IMG/VR virus record: IMGVR_UViG_3300042868_005761
Span: 1-64,000 of that record
Length of the DNA: 64,000 nt
From: a virus
Strand: one strand, 5' to 3'
Within the stretch, counting starts at the first letter, position 1. Each line of letters begins with the position of its first letter. Under the pieces are notes generated by a model. It was not told the DNA's origin. It was given only the letters and a program-made list of their open reading frames with translations, and did no database searches. The position numbers were made by a program, and so were the translations under genes. This document shows, in pieces, positions 15,564 through 38,902 of this stretch.

Positions 15564-15684
15564 CTTTCATCCAAAAAAGGTCCAATTACTCCGCTGCCTC
15601 GCTTACGCTCGGCTGTCCGTTCGCATGTTTGTCTTCGCTTGTAGGGCTCGCTTCGCTCGGCGCAACCGCTTCGCTCGCTTCGCT

Positions 15685-15711
15685 GGGGCTATCGCCCCTT
15701 TTTTCTGCGGA
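15685..15711 (+). promoter_or_regulatory. hairpin element copy 1 (putative phage promoter)
   Basis: GGGGCTATCGCCCC + 10 nt + GGA. Confidence 0.6.
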
Positions 15712-15758
15712 GTCCAGATGTCCTGGCTCCCGTTTGGTCCAGCGTGATGGACTGCGAG

Positions 15759-15786
15759 AGGGGCTATCGCCCCTTGTTTCTGCGGA
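15759..15786 (+). promoter_or_regulatory. hairpin element copy 2
   Basis: AGGGGCTATCGCCCC + 10 nt + GGA; upstream of SSB. Confidence 0.6.
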
Positions 15787-15824
15787 GAGGAGGATGGTCC
15801 TTCTCTCCACACTGGAGCGCACCC

Positions 15825-16250
15825 ATGAGCATGGGCTTTGAGCGTACTCAGGTCGTCGGCAACCTTGGAGCCGACCCTATTCTCCTGACGGGCCAGTCGG
15901 GAACTTCCATCTGCGCCATGCGCGTCGCTGTCAACCGCAAGGTCAAGGGCGTCGCTGTCGTGAAGTGGCGGGACGTCGTGTGCTTCGGTGCACTCGCGGA
16001 GAACATGGCGAAGATCCTCAAGAAGGGCGACACCGTGTTCGTGGACGGAACCCCCGAAGACGAAGAGTTCCTCCGCAAGGATGGCTCCAAGGGCTTCGCC
16101 GTCAAGATCCTCGCCAACGTCGTCGTCAAGACTGGCTCCCCCGCTGGCGCTTCGGCTCCGACTGCGGCTTCGGCTGCGGGCGGTGACGCGGCTGCGGAGG
16201 CCCTTGCGGCGCTTCGCGAGACTGCCAGCGTCCCGACCGACCCCTTCTAG
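15825..16250 (+). CDS. ssb: single-stranded DNA-binding protein
   Basis: VVGNLGADP, W..VVCFG.LAE..AK.LKKGD.VFVDG; C-terminal DPF; very GC-rich. Confidence 0.9.
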   Translation: MSMGFERTQVVGNLGADPILLTGQSGTSICAMRVAVNRKVKGVAVVKWRDVVCFGALAENMAKILKKGDTVFVDGTPEDEEFLRKDGSKGFAVKILANVVVKTGSPAGASAPTAASAAGGDAAAEALAALRETASVPTDPF

Positions 16251-16361
16251 GGCGCAGGTCGAGCCTCAACCCCCCTTCGCCCTAGCGGGCGTCGGGGGGT
16301 TTCGGAGCCCTGTCTTCGCTGAGTAAAAATAGGCCCGCAACTCCGCTTAGTATAGATACAG

Positions 16362-16389
16362 AGGGGCTATCGCCCCTTTTTTCGGTGGA
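16362..16389 (+). promoter_or_regulatory. hairpin element copy 3
   Basis: AGGGGCTATCGCCCC + 10 nt + GGA. Confidence 0.6.
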
Positions 16390-16406
16390 TAGGCAATTCT
16401 GCTTAT

Positions 16407-16628
16407 ATGGAGGAAGTCATGTTGATGAGTGCTGCTGCGATCTTGACTGATAGTTTTGAGAAGGTTCAGAAGGAGACTCTGAGCCTGGATGACGTGAACC
16501 ATGAGTCTTATGACCCGTGGGATGCCATCAATGAGCGTCTCGATGAGAAGAAGTACGAGGAAGATGCCAACACTGGCTCTGACTCGCTGATTGAAGCCGT
16601 GCATACGGCCCGCCGTTTCTTTATCTAG
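16407..16628 (+). CDS. small acidic hypothetical protein
   Basis: 73-aa ORF; alternative GGAGG-led start at 16419. Confidence 0.7.
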   Translation: MEEVMLMSAAAILTDSFEKVQKETLSLDDVNHESYDPWDAINERLDEKKYEEDANTGSDSLIEAVHTARRFFI

Positions 16629-17491
16629 TCTTCGGACTGATAGAGATAGGAGTCTACCCTCCGAAGTTAAGAGCACCTGTCCGCGGGACTCGGGGTAGAA
16701 CTCATGTGCTGGATCTCCTAAGGAGGCACATGTTTAAACAGAAGAGGGGACGACCTAGGGTATGTCGTAAAACTACCCGACTTTTTACGGCGATAGTGGG
16801 TTACACTAGTTCTAGTAGTAGGGTGTAAACTCTATTAGAACTACCATGAAGCGCCATCCTTCAAGAGTTTACTAGTACAATCATAAGTGCGCCTGCCGCT
16901 TATGGGAACCTAGTGAGAGTCAGTTAGTTGCTGTGGGTGTATGGGAGCATAGCACGGTGACGAAAGTCTGCCGTGTTTATGCCGCTACCAGCACATATGG
17001 GTCATTGACTCATAACCACGAAACCTGGCTATATAAAAAGGCTGGTTACTGGTTGGAGCCCTGCCACTAGTAATAAGATAGACATGGGCTTCAAATCCTC
17101 TAGAAAAACCATAGGTGAGCCTGCCACTTATTGGGAACCTAGAGGTAGTCAGGGTTGCAAACCTGGCTTTAGCGATGGGCTGGCTGTTAGTGGACCCCTG
17201 CCACTAATGGAGAAAGACGAACATGGGGTGGTGACTAGTTGGAGCCCTGCCGCTAGTAACGAGATAAACATGGGCACTATCGGAACTCCTTTACTCACCC
17301 TCGGGAAGGATAGGTAGATAAGACAAAGAGGTACTCGTCTGTCCTAGCAGATGAGCAGTGCTGCAGCGCTGTAATATATAGGAGTCCCCAAGCCGTTTCT
17401 CGGGTTTGGATTATGGCTTTAGACAGAGGTTTGATCAGTCTGGTGACGCAACGGACCACACGCGGTTATGGGTTCGATTCCCATATGATTG
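16629..17491 (+). ncRNA. candidate large structured ncRNA (or cluster of ncRNAs) with five repeated pseudoknot modules and a 3' T-arm
   Basis: ~860 nt without a credible ORF; many stems with G-U pairs on the + strand, UUCG and GAAA loops; ATGGG-TTCGATT-CCCAT at 17468-17484. Confidence 0.65.
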
Positions 17492-17517
17492 AATTACTTT
17501 TACTAAGAGGTTACAAG

Positions 17518-17682
17518 ATGAGAAATCAGTTTCCTGGAGTATGTTACCGATGCGGCAAGACTGTTCCTGCTAAGGAGGGACACTTTGAACGTCACATCGG
17601 TACTTGGCGAACACAACATGTCGACTGTGCAATCAAGTACAGAGGCACATCTTACAGTCACACTGCTACAAACAAGGAGTAG
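17518..17682 (+). CDS. small Zn-finger-like phage protein
   Basis: CxxC..HxxC; AGAGG upstream. Confidence 0.7.
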   Translation: MRNQFPGVCYRCGKTVPAKEGHFERHIGTWRTQHVDCAIKYRGTSYSHTATNKE

Positions 17683-17685
17683 CAC

Positions 17686-18267
17686 ATGAACAACAAGAAC
17701 ACGATCTTCAATTTCAGCGCTGTCCGCCTTTTCGCAACCGAGATCGCCAAGAGGATGAACCATCTCGGATACGATACGACCTACTCGGTTGCCATGACCG
17801 AGTTCAGTGGCCCGACCATCAGCTCCGCCATCAGGGGCAACACGGAAAAGGAAGGGTACTACATCGTGGAGCACGGGATGTTCCACGACGCACGCAAAGG
17901 CTTCGAGGTCAATTTCACGATTAGCCTCCCCAGTCCCGAAGGCGGATACATCACCGAATGGGTCAGCGCCAAAATCAACAGGATCCGTCTCCGTGACTAC
18001 CTGGAGACCGAGGAGACCCTGTACTCCGTCCCGACTCTGGAAGTGTACTCGGAGCGGTTTGGAGAGACCGCTGCCTTCTACAGTGCAATCCCCACCTTGA
18101 CGAAGCACTTTGACTTCACGGTCAAGAACGTCAAGGCTGACATGGACAGTCTCATCAACCTGTTCTGGGGACAGAAGAGCCTCCTCAGCAAGATTGAAGA
18201 CCCCGACTGTGCCATCGAGGAGTTTAATAACCTCCTGGTTGAGTTGGGAAGTTCTGTCTCGTCCTAG
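17686..18267 (+). CDS. hypothetical protein
   Basis: 193 aa; AAGGAG SD; GC-rich codon usage. Confidence 0.8.
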   Translation: MNNKNTIFNFSAVRLFATEIAKRMNHLGYDTTYSVAMTEFSGPTISSAIRGNTEKEGYYIVEHGMFHDARKGFEVNFTISLPSPEGGYITEWVSAKINRIRLRDYLETEETLYSVPTLEVYSERFGETAAFYSAIPTLTKHFDFTVKNVKADMDSLINLFWGQKSLLSKIEDPDCAIEEFNNLLVELGSSVSS

Positions 18268-18276
18268 TAGTCAACT

Positions 18277-18406
18277 GATTACTAGTAGGTCCACAGCCTG
18301 AAACCTGCCCGTTGGTAGGCTAACCTATCAGATGTCATGTCTGGTAGCCACAAAGGCTGAATCACTTCCTTATGGTAACAGATGGGTTCGAATCCTGTCA
18401 GGAAGA
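18277..18406 (+). ncRNA. candidate small structured RNA with three-way junction and tRNA-like T-arm
   Basis: CAGCCT/AGGCTG closes CCTGCC/GGTAGG and CTATCAGA/TCTGGTAG; then CTTCCT..GATGGG-TTCGAAT-CCTGTC-AGGAAG. Confidence 0.5.
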
Positions 18407-18433
18407 CTTTACCCCCTTATATAGAGGTTTGTC

Positions 18434-18889
18434 ATGGAAAAGCAGTTTGCAATGGAAACGGTTCAGGACATGGATAAGATCCTTGCTATCCTCAAGCCCA
18501 AACTTGAAGATAGTAAGATGAAGTATCACTTCCTCAAAGAAGAGGACACCACCGAGTGGCATTACAAAGACCAACAGGAATACTGGAGAGTCCGTAAGTC
18601 AGTCGTAGACACTTACTTCAACTGCTTGCAGATGAATGAGTGGGCCGGAGATTATCGCCGTTTTCTGGAAACAGGTCTTGATGGATGGACCTCTAGGGAT
18701 CTGTCGAAGGTCGGCAAAGAGATCCTCAACAGATACCTCAACAAAGTAGTTGAGGAAACCTGGTGGGATGCCAATGAGGACCGCCTTATGGGAGAATTCG
18801 AAAGTTCCCGCCAAGGACTCGGCGATGATGACCGCAACTTTGAGTGGTACATCAATCAGCAATACGAGACTTACCTCCACGAACTGTAA
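18434..18889 (+). CDS. hypothetical protein
   Basis: 151 aa; GAGGT SD. Confidence 0.8.
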   Translation: MEKQFAMETVQDMDKILAILKPKLEDSKMKYHFLKEEDTTEWHYKDQQEYWRVRKSVVDTYFNCLQMNEWAGDYRRFLETGLDGWTSRDLSKVGKEILNRYLNKVVEETWWDANEDRLMGEFESSRQGLGDDDRNFEWYINQQYETYLHEL

Positions 18890-20461: not shown

Positions 20462-20536
20462 GTGCCCGTAGCACAGTTGGATAGTTGCAACGGCCTTCTA
20501 AGCCGTAGGTCACTGGTTCAAGTCCAGTCGGGCACA
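20462..20536 (+). tRNA. tRNA-Arg(UCU)
   Basis: GTGCCCG/CGGGCAC acceptor stem; ACGGC-CTTCTAA-GCCGT; GGTTCAAGTCC. Confidence 0.93.
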
Positions 20537-38160: not shown

Positions 38161-38848
38161 ATAGAAAATTTGAGCCCTATAGGGGAAACCTTATAGGTGA
38201 AGACAATCAAATTCGGTGAAGGCTAAACTAGTTTACTAGCATGCTAATACCGAGCTAAGCCTTAAATGGCAAACACACAGTTTATTCTCCATTACCTATG
38301 CTATAATATTACTATGAGAAAATATAAAGATTATACAGATCAGCAAATAATAGATGCTGTTAAGGCTAGTAAAAGCATTTCCCAAGTACTTAAAGTTCTT
38401 GGGCTAAAGCAAGCTGGAGGTAATTACGCAAATGTCCAACGGAACATCCAAAGACTATTGTGTGACACCTCTCACTTTACTGGCAAAGGTTGGAATAAAG
38501 ATCAACAGTTGAAAGACTGGAGTTCTTATTCTAAAGCTGCTAATCTAAAACCTCATTTAATAAAAAAGCGTACTCATCAATGCGAACAATGTAATCTTTC
38601 AGAATGGCTTTCTGAGCAGATAAAATTGGAAATACATCACATTGATGGAGATAGGACAAATAATGTAGAAGAAAACTTGCAGTTGCTTTGTCCAAACTGT
38701 CATTCTATGACAGACTCTTGGAGAAAAGCAAACCATTTAAGGAAAGTGTAGAGACTAGACGGTTGTTACCTAATGTAGAAATACTATGGTAAAGGTATAG
38801 TCCAGACCACAAACGGCATATGCTGGTAGTGAAAACTATAGTGGTAAG
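38161..38848 (+). mobile_element. group I intron (trnL-UAA type, IC3-like)
   Basis: follows U, ends in G; core elements TGAGCC, CAAATTCGGTGAA, ATACCGAGCTAA, GTGTAGAGACTAGA, AAGGTATAGTCC. Confidence 0.88.
38266..38751 (+). CDS. intron-encoded HNH homing endonuclease
   Basis: CEQC..LEIHHIDGD.TNN...NL.LLCPNCH; start may be 38314. Confidence 0.9.
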   Translation: MANTQFILHYLCYNITMRKYKDYTDQQIIDAVKASKSISQVLKVLGLKQAGGNYANVQRNIQRLLCDTSHFTGKGWNKDQQLKDWSSYSKAANLKPHLIKKRTHQCEQCNLSEWLSEQIKLEIHHIDGDRTNNVEENLQLLCPNCHSMTDSWRKANHLRKV

Positions 38849-38902
38849 AAAATCTGCCTTCCTTGGAATTACGGGTTCAAGTCCCGTCCTGAGCACTTAT
38901 TT

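Follow-up and report, generated by a model that had tools for sequence, protein, structure and literature searches.

Positions 16629-17497 of the window, by which we mean the whole 64,000-nt stretch analyzed (the first 64 kb of a 176,231-bp record of an uncultured freshwater phage in IMG/VR), are a non-coding, strongly structured, modular RNA locus on the + strand. The locus is an array of pseudoknot modules that ends in an anticodon-less tRNA-like domain (TLD). Six H-type pseudoknots (PK-a, PK-b, B1-B3, and PK-c), the modules A1 and A2, and the acceptor-like stem of the TLD are backed by compensatory change. We put the chances at about even that the TLD is a tRNA-type handle that releases a stable pseudoknot-array RNA, for which a role as a scaffold or decoy is our best guess.

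No open reading frame (ORF) in 16629-17497 is kept among the variants of the relatives; the longest encodes 77 aa in the window, two relatives have only a 56-aa version that ends in a different C-terminus, and the others lack it. The minimum free energy of the + strand is -303 kcal/mol (z -3.9), versus -253 kcal/mol (z -2.3) for the - strand. These values and the covariation of pairs described below bear out the original prediction, made from the sequence of this region, that it is ORF-poor and structured. All of the motifs listed in that prediction are present at the positions given there, including ATGGG-TTCGATT-CCCAT at 17468-17484. Its proposal of a new or divergent giant non-coding RNA holds only in part: the RNA is new, having no Rfam match, but it consists of separable modules and is not one fixed 860-nt RNA.

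Pseudoknots and Modules Backed by Compensatory Change

Relatives were retrieved by exact-pattern scans and neighbor-protein searches of IMG/VR and JGI metagenomes. They form a small clade of freshwater phage contigs (given L numbers below; L002/L003 are the R type) with flanking genes ~82-92% identical to those of the window, and the RNA region occurs as nine sequence variants. As a control for each pairing value, stem partners were shifted ("slid") by 1-3 alignment columns. The supported elements of the array are as follows, with S1 and S2 denoting the two stems and L3 the third loop of a pseudoknot.

16750-16778, + strand: PK-a, H-type pseudoknot, S1 CGAC/GTCG, S2 GGGTA/TACCC (alignment A6)
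16801-16843, + strand: PK-b, H-type pseudoknot, S1 TTACAC/GTGTAA (16801-06/16823-28), S2 of 12 bp, TAGTTCTAGTAG/CTATTAGAACTA (16807-18/16832-43) (alignment A4)
16872-16913, + strand: module A1, outer CTAG/CTAG, internal loop, inner ATAAGTG/CGCTTAT, loop CGCCUGC (alignment A5)
17046-17089, + strand: module B1, H-type pseudoknot, S1 TTACTGGT/ACTAGTAA, loop TGGAGCCCTGCC, A-rich L3, S2 GCCC/GGGC (model R1, 68.8 bits)
17100-17142, + strand: module A2, inner ATAGGTG/CACTTAT, loop AGCCUGC (alignment A5)
17184-17228, + strand: module B2, H-type pseudoknot, S1 CTGTTAGTG/CACTAATGG, S2 CCCC/GGGG (model R1, 64.3 bits)
17231-17275, + strand: module B3, H-type pseudoknot, S1 GTGACTAGT/GCTAGTAAC, S2 GCCC/GGGC (model R1, 65.8 bits)
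17277-17385, + strand: PK-c, S1 CTATC/GATAG (17277-81/17309-13), S2 ACTCC/GGAGT (17285-89/17381-85), judged by eye

The B modules (alignment A2; 19 modules, three of them in the window) are 96.7% paired, as compared with 32-54% when slid. Their mean column identity is 70%, and the structure is kept by compensatory change: S2 covaries within the window itself (GCCC/GGGC in B1 and B3, CCCC/GGGG in B2), and the pseudoknot pair 23-59 is C-G eight times and G-C eight times. Their loop signature is GGA-GCCC-UGCC, with an A-rich third loop and ACAUGGG. In the A modules (eight aligned), the inner stem is 100% paired with two double changes, and the whole structure falls to 9-52% when slid. All A and B modules show a CCUGCC-type loop, and in L008 and L054 the A-type GCCU(A/G)C loop is presented on unrelated stems.

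PK-b (seven variants) is 95.2% paired, or 30-50% when slid, with five doubly changed pairs across both helices, while PK-a (five variants) is 97.8% paired, or 22-42% when slid, with pairs 7-23 and 15-33 doubly changed. PK-a, PK-b, and the B modules thus all have the crossing helices of an H-type pseudoknot, with compensatory change in each helix. For PK-c, the hairpin with a UGCA loop inserted in it, and hairpin hp3, compensatory changes between the window and L008 were read by eye only. PK-c is compact in L008 (S1 CTATACT/AGTATAG, loop CTCC, then GGGGAG, also by eye). Given the slid controls and the covariation of crossing helices, chance is an unlikely source of these folds.

A tRNA-like Domain at the 3' End

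The array is followed by a domain with the top half of a tRNA.

17431-17493, + strand: TLD, 63 nt, anticodon-less (alignment A3, nine variants)
17431-37/17486-92, + strand: TLD acceptor stem, TTGATCA/TGATTGA
17438-47, + strand: TLD D-like hairpin, GTC-TGGT-GAC, 3 bp with a UGGU loop
17467-85, + strand: TLD T arm, TATGGG-TTCGATT-CCCATA, with a canonical UUCGAUU loop and a G-C closing pair
17493 and 17430, + strand: discriminator A73 (A17493) and U(-1) (T17430), both invariant in A3
17494-17497, + strand: conserved trailer; A73 plus T-(T/C)-A-C is invariant in nine variants, and no CCA is encoded

The 7-bp acceptor stem is 100% paired in nine of nine variants, and three of its pairs are doubly changed. 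It occurs in three versions (TTGATCA/TGATTGA, CTAGTTG/CAACTAG, and TTGATTA/TGGTCAA), and pairing of the whole TLD falls to 34-50% when slid. The original prediction paired the ATGATTG that follows the T arm with CAATCAT (16878) or GATTAT (17409). Since the covarying partner is the local TTGATCA at 17431-17437, this long-range closure is rejected. The prediction of a tRNA-like processing signal fared better, as the T arm lies within a genuine tRNA-like element that appears suited to processing.

At the position of the anticodon arm there is a 17-nt connector in the window, a 25-33-nt hairpin in the R type and L011, and a ~150-nt insert, comprising a closing stem and a branched domain, in L004. 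The TLD is therefore not a tRNA cloverleaf, as it has no anticodon arm, but it does combine the acceptor/T-arm mimic, T-loop consensus, and elbow partner of t-elements and mascRNA. U(-1) and A73 are compatible with RNase P cleavage and 3' processing, judging from sequence features. The phage's own tRNA genes mostly lack an encoded CCA as well. The Shine-Dalgarno sequence (SD) and ATG of the next ORF are at 17505-17520, just after the trailer.

A second tRNA mimic stands less than 1 kb downstream.

18366-18407, + strand: mini TLD, 42 nt, CTTCCT / ATGGG-TTCGAAT-CCTGT / AGGAAG, then A

This element closes a second structured intergenic RNA (18268-18365) just 5' of the SD of a 151-aa ORF, and it is kept in L006, L052, and L059, with no covariation. 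With a tRNA top half present at two sites within 1 kb, tRNA mimics may serve freshwater phages as punctuation marks in early transcripts, which would carry the principle of tRNA punctuation known from organelles and MALAT1 over to phage non-coding RNAs.

A Mosaic of Movable Modules

Phages with flanking DNA and proteins that are ~75-92% identical differ in the modules that they carry. The R type lacks 16633-16750 and 16924-17023, and a fourth B module replaces window positions 17276-17430. L059 is the closest to the window, yet its 5' part is short as in the R type. Module numbers in L009 and L011 differ from that of the window; L054 has PK-b and an A-like module on unrelated stems but no B modules; and L008 is reduced to ~270 nt, comprising an A-like module, PK-c, two hairpins, and the tRNA-like end. 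In L004/L005, the homolog of 16647-16788 stands alone 1.2 kb upstream, between a promoter-like motif and its own terminator, and the array begins after a second copy of that motif. The promoter-like motif also precedes the array in L009 and L054, and in these two and L004 an SD and ORF follow within ~20 nt of the TLD.

L057 (reverse strand of a 1400-nt contig) carries a tandem pair of arrays, each finished by a separate tRNA-like domain, and 9 nt separate the end of the first from the next module. Based on the variable number and order of modules, the separable 5' unit, and the tandem copies, the locus is a mosaic of movable modules and not a fixed giant RNA. Modular evolution is thus directly visible here, with pseudoknot units gained, lost, inserted, and duplicated between near-identical phages.

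In L057, the first tRNA-like domain also holds a ~150-nt insert (a closing stem and a domain) that contains a T-arm-like hairpin, AAGGG-TTCAATC-CCCTT.

Presence in RNA Libraries

Twenty-one metatranscriptome runs (20 studies, nearly all of freshwater or lakes) contain 5-15% of sampled words of 16300-17700. Contigs of four runs from four studies were compared with 15600-18600. The RNA contigs cover 16880-17343 only. Several natural variants are represented: the window type, which has the 100-nt insertion; the R type, which lacks it; and, in loose ends, L009-type junctions. None of the contigs from these four runs lies on the flanking phage ORFs, and none covers 16206-16811 or 17418-18600 (the upstream 73-aa ORF, the 5' unit, the TLD, and the downstream ORFs), although absence in contigs is not proof. 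As the array was assembled from RNA without its neighbor genes, an abundant stable RNA fits better than DNA carry-over. The starts of two RNA contigs from separate studies, at 16880 and 16883, hint only weakly at an end. RNA pieces of the nearby SSB gene are 85-90% alike and diverge from the window beyond it, so they likely derive from other organisms.

Relation to Known RNA Families

Searches for known families point to a new RNA. With Rfam 15, the whole window at gathering scores yields nothing in the region, and 16200-17700 at E ≤ 10 and six relatives at E ≤ 0.5 yield no GOLLD or ROOL match. Neither the tmRNA (transfer-messenger RNA) nor the RNase P models, nor any other Rfam match, assigns a family to the region; the check suggested in the original prediction, a search with GOLLD, ROOL, tmRNA, and RNase P models, thus came back empty. 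Rfam touches the region only at the 17-nt T arm by itself, which scores 10.5 bits with the tmRNA model (gathering score, 47), and matches in the tRNA clan are likewise confined to this arm, the anticodon arm being replaced by the connector. ARAGORN finds no tRNA, tmRNA, or tag at the array locus in the window, the whole genome, or the relatives. Absence from Rfam indicates a new RNA and not a divergent GOLLD or ROOL.

Nor did wider searches extend the family beyond the clade: blastn against 50,697 phage records gave no match, a B-module pattern scan of 185,579 species genomes returned no relative (one chance match lies beside an IS3 transposase gene), no further B modules occur across the 176-kb genome, and searches for distant phage relatives through the RNA polymerase and 193-aa neighbor proteins recovered close relatives only. 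No description of such an RNA was found in the literature or Rfam. The locus represents a family not yet catalogued, whose folds each have unusually clear backing from comparison and which is present in RNA libraries.

Among described systems, the locus comes closest to the phage stable RNAs that carry tRNA-like handles, although by the comparisons made here it belongs to none of the families discussed and its cargo architecture is not described elsewhere. MALAT1-mascRNA, phage T4 species 1/2, and the T5 stable RNAs are examples of such handles, and the tobamovirus 3' untranslated region (UTR) has an upstream pseudoknot domain followed by an aminoacylatable tRNA-like structure with an anticodon-like arm at the end of a eukaryotic RNA-virus genome. 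The t-elements of plant mitochondria are tRNA-like processing handles as well (PMC1920247). Our locus shares with the handles an acceptor and T-arm mimic inside a longer transcript, a T-loop consensus, a non-decoding character, and a placement that could define RNA ends. It differs in that its cargo is an array of pseudoknot modules and not an mRNA or single small RNA, and in that its TLD has no anticodon arm and possibly a 13-bp stack, with cleavage predicted here from sequence features. The linear order of stacked pseudoknots and then a 3' tRNA mimic is that of the tobamovirus 3' UTR, but here it occurs in a DNA-phage transcript with an ORF downstream and with no sequence relation.

Proposed Maturation and Role

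In the proposed mechanism, the locus would be transcribed within a longer early transcript or, in some relatives, from its own promoter. The TLD would be recognized as a pre-tRNA by host tRNA-processing enzymes, with RNase P cutting between U17430 and U17431 and the 3' side being trimmed after A17493, to which CCA would then be added. The array RNA would in this way be freed with a defined 3' end and parted from the downstream mRNA. Genes for SmpB, a CCA-adding enzyme, and Ro60 were sought in the phage genome and none was found; as the CCA-adding enzyme is absent, host enzymes would have to act. Once freed, the array of compact triplex-type pseudoknots may persist as a stable, trans-acting RNA, and we guess that during host takeover it could bind proteins multivalently, as a scaffold or decoy.

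Release by the TLD is suggested by the stacked acceptor/T helix, the T-loop/D-loop elbow, U(-1), and A73, which are the pre-tRNA features read by RNase P and by 3'-end and CCA enzymes. A role in punctuation follows from the position of the TLD between structured cargo and the next SD and ORF, a position repeated at 18366-18407 and in L057. That the array could be a multivalent binder or decoy is proposed on the basis of its repeated compact pseudoknots with conserved loops and of the fast change in their copy number.

Several observations weigh against this proposal. Neither cleavage at 17430/17431 nor CCA addition can be read from RNA contigs, none of which extends over the TLD. The stack of acceptor and T stems is possibly 13 bp and not 12. 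Because the B modules are paralogous and the orthologous variants few (5-9), the pairing counts do not amount to independent events. We guess at a scaffold or decoy purely from architecture and turnover. No partner of the array came to light, and two more specific roles were rejected: that of a CsrA-type sponge, as GGA is not enriched (19 occurrences versus 17.3 expected), and that of an antisense RNA to phage mRNAs, as the phage genome has no site complementary to at least 8 bases of the B-module loops. The A2 loop has a single 9-base complement there (GGCAGGCTC at 1514), and shorter complements are at or below chance.

A fuller version of the proposal is that these RNAs are a novel class of large modular phage non-coding RNAs, in which pseudoknots with CCUGCC-type loops act as a multivalent trap or scaffold for host factors in early infection and are matured and stabilized by an anticodon-less tRNA mimic. 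We offer this version tentatively and regard it as possible rather than probable. If true, it would be a bacterial-virus counterpart both of the pseudoknot and tRNA-like ends of plant RNA viruses and of MALAT1-mascRNA processing. Few large structured phage RNAs are on record; GOLLD and ROOL are examples, and no function is known for any of them.

Alternative Explanations

The most likely alternative, though still an unlikely one, is that the array is a cis-acting UTR, whose structures shield the flanking mRNA from exonucleases or control translation of small ORFs and whose TLD is a stabilizing end. The neighbors of the locus are invariably small early ORFs in the same orientation, the TLD is followed after ~12-25 nt by an SD and ATG, and between 16363 and 19413 neither a terminator nor a GGGGCTATCGCCCC hairpin was found. 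However, relatives keep the RNA modules but not the same flanking ORFs, tandem duplication of the array can occur (L057), the RNA contigs contain the array without the neighboring ORFs, and at least five repeated modules exceed what a stabilizer needs.

Less likely still is a mimic derived from tmRNA (SsrA; RF00023 and permuted forms), in which the TLD would be excised, given CCA, charged with alanine, and brought with SmpB into stalled ribosomes, where it would act as a tmRNA lacking the tag or as a competitor, the array having arisen from the tmRNA pseudoknots. There are several resemblances: tmRNA is where one otherwise typically finds tandem H-type pseudoknots of ~45-50 nt beside an anticodon-less tRNA-like domain that has an acceptor stem and a T arm, G3.U70 and A73 occur together in seven of nine variants, the D-like sequence GUCUGGUGACGC resembles the tmRNA 5' sequence UCUGGAUUCGACG, tmRNA is the Rfam model that the T arm contacts best, and the ~150-nt insert of L004 at the anticodon position of the TLD reproduces the tmRNA topology. 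Pseudoknot PK3 of Escherichia coli ssrA contains TGGAAGCCCTGCC, which is near the B-module loop.

Nevertheless, the window pseudoknots lie 5' of the closed TLD and none lies inside it, the insert being found only in L004 and L057; G3.U70 is not conserved, becoming A-U in L008 and G-C in L060; no CCA is encoded; ARAGORN and all Rfam tmRNA models fail; and the phage genome has no SmpB gene. There is also no tag ORF with a conserved frame. The candidate examined, which follows PK-b (GCA AGA CGU CAC/U ...), was rejected, as its frame is shifted in L011 and replaced in the window.

The PK3 sequence in question (E. coli K-12 ssrA, L047:390-440) is almost identical to TGGAGCCCTGCC, but the surrounding helices differ, and the likeness of TGGAAGCCCTGCC to this loop could be either coincidence or a trace of tmRNA ancestry.

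We give little credence to self-assembly of the GOLLD or ROOL kind, in which the palindromic UGCA loop and the CUAG and ACUAGU stems would drive formation of homo-oligomers. GOLLD and ROOL are phage RNAs often found near tRNA islands, and tRNAs sometimes occur in the GOLLD linker (PMC12286853). Like these RNAs, which are large, ornate, linked to tRNAs, and abundant in RNA data (PMC12286853), ours is phage-borne, 0.3-0.9 kb long, pseudoknot-rich, and tied to tRNA-like elements; moreover, its UGCA-loop hairpin is kept in all variants and CTAG occurs 11 times versus 3.4 expected. Yet no GOLLD or ROOL covariance model matches even at E ≤ 10, the CTAG excess is explained by module duplication, and there is no fixed core, the number and order of modules varying so freely in close relatives that a precise cage geometry is hard to accommodate.

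ToxI-type antitoxins are pseudoknot repeats, and phages can escape by mimics. An anti-defense decoy of this pseudo-ToxI kind, with repeats that mimic the antitoxin of a host type III toxin-antitoxin system or target another RNA-guided or RNA-binding defense, is similarly improbable: the units do repeat at ~45-50 nt, lie in an early region, and shift rapidly in copy number among relatives, but they are ~70% alike and held by compensatory change where type III antitoxin RNAs have near-identical tandem repeats, Tandem Repeats Finder detects no array in 16629-17497, the flanking ORFs have no Pfam match and no toxin-like gene lies next to the array, and the scan of 185,579 genomes found no relative.

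Other Elements of the Array

The remaining features of the array region are listed here.

16627-16638, + strand: hairpin AGTC-TTCG-GACT, overlapping the TAG stop (16626-16628) of the upstream 73-aa ORF
16640-16749, + strand: 5' unit, helix TCTACCC/GGGTAGA (16653-59/16693-99) around CCGA.../TCGG
16703-16732, + strand: long hairpin CATGTGC...GCACATG, closed by 7 bp, hiding a perfect TAAGGAGG and an ATG
16784-16792, + strand: TTTACGGCG, conserved array-unit start, in the window, R, L004, L011, and L059
16917-24/17004-11, + strand: stem GAGTCAGT/ATTGACTC, in the hp1 insertion
16919-17029, + strand: hairpin hp1, GTCAG.../CCTGGC, with a 100-nt insertion in its loop (16924-17023)
16947-16982, + strand: GAAA-capped hairpin, inside the hp1 insertion
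17148-17167, + strand: hairpin hp2, GTCAGG-GTTGCAAA-CCTGGC; R has GTTAGGG/CCCTGGC at the hp1 position (C-G to U-G)
17334-41/17348-55, + strand: hairpin CTCGTCTG/CAGATGAG, inserted in the PK-c third loop
17356-71, + strand: UGCA-loop hairpin CAGTGC-UGCA-GCGCTG, inserted in the PK-c third loop
17388-17409, + strand: hairpin hp3, CCAAGCC/GGTTTGG; L008 has CCAGGTC/GATCTGG in the same place (A-U to G-C)

The outer pairs of the UGCA-loop hairpin are changed in L008 (GGGTGC/GCGCCC) and R (GGTCTGC/GCGGGCC). At the hp1 position, R, L004, and L059 have the simple GTCAGG-GTTGCAAA-CCTGGC hairpin of hp2, without the insertion. The RNA contig of run X2 joins 16923 to 17024, and those of X1 and X8 contain the insertion. 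Outside the window, the GAAA hairpin, the GAGTCAGT stem, and the CTCGTCTG hairpin are confined to L059 or to window-type RNA contigs, which leaves them without comparative support. The same is true of the AGTC-TTCG-GACT hairpin, found in the window only and missing in R (L003), L011, and L004.

The 5' unit is 88% identical to L004:3236-3376, where its outer helix is compensated (TCCATCC/GGATGGA). The ORF after its buried ATG (window 16703-16830) has 32 codons in the window and 7 in L004, so the buried TAAGGAGG and ATG are probably an RNA element and not a gene. The array-unit start reads TTTAAGGCG in L009 and L054, and in L004, L009, and L054 it lies 25-60 nt 3' of the motif GGCCTCCT(G/T)CGTCGGCC.

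Genomic Context and Further tRNA-like Sequences

The long ORFs of the window are almost all on the + strand. The array locus sits in an early-type region, 3' of a very large ORF and an SSB gene (Pfam SSB), and is flanked by a 73-aa acidic ORF (16407-16628) on its 5' side and a 54-aa Cys/His-rich ORF (17518-17682) on its 3' side; a Pfam search of these two flanking ORFs matched no family. The nearest genuine tRNA gene, for Arg, is 3 kb away at 20462, the tRNA-like domains being built into the locus instead.

Further tRNA-like sequences were encountered elsewhere. The structured RNA that ends in the mini TLD (18268-18407) includes AACCTGCCCG, which resembles the module loops. A T-arm-like hairpin, ACGGG-TTCAAGT-CCCGT (38817-38899), lies 15 nt 5' of tRNA-Tyr, with no acceptor partner or cloverleaf by eye or with ARAGORN, and may be a degenerate tRNA or a further tRNA-like handle. 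The unrelated metagenome contigs L053 (2222-2320), L055, and L056, retrieved only through the search pattern, carry selC-like tRNA genes, with a UCA anticodon, a 6-bp D stem bearing a UGGU loop, and a long variable arm, that share GTCTGGTGACGC and TGGGTTCGATTCCCATA with the phage TLD.

Identical GGGGCTATCGCCCC hairpins occur at five places (15685, 15760, 16363, 19413, and 19965), with a T run after the copies read. The original prediction had the RNA transcribed from a hairpin element; the hairpin at 16363 has a GC stem and then six T, and could by its appearance equally well be an intrinsic terminator. In relatives (L004:3120-4530, L009:8600-8930, and L054:600-1010), each small early gene is marked by an intrinsic terminator and then GG(C/G)CTCCT(G/T)CGTCG(G/C)CC. 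This motif is absent from the window, where the corresponding places carry five identical GAGGGGCTATCGCCCC hairpins with a T run in the copies read. Transcription punctuation thus seems to have been exchanged between near-identical phages. The SSB gene (15744-16250) has 60-72% G+C, as compared with ~50% for the genome, and this excess suggests a recent acquisition.

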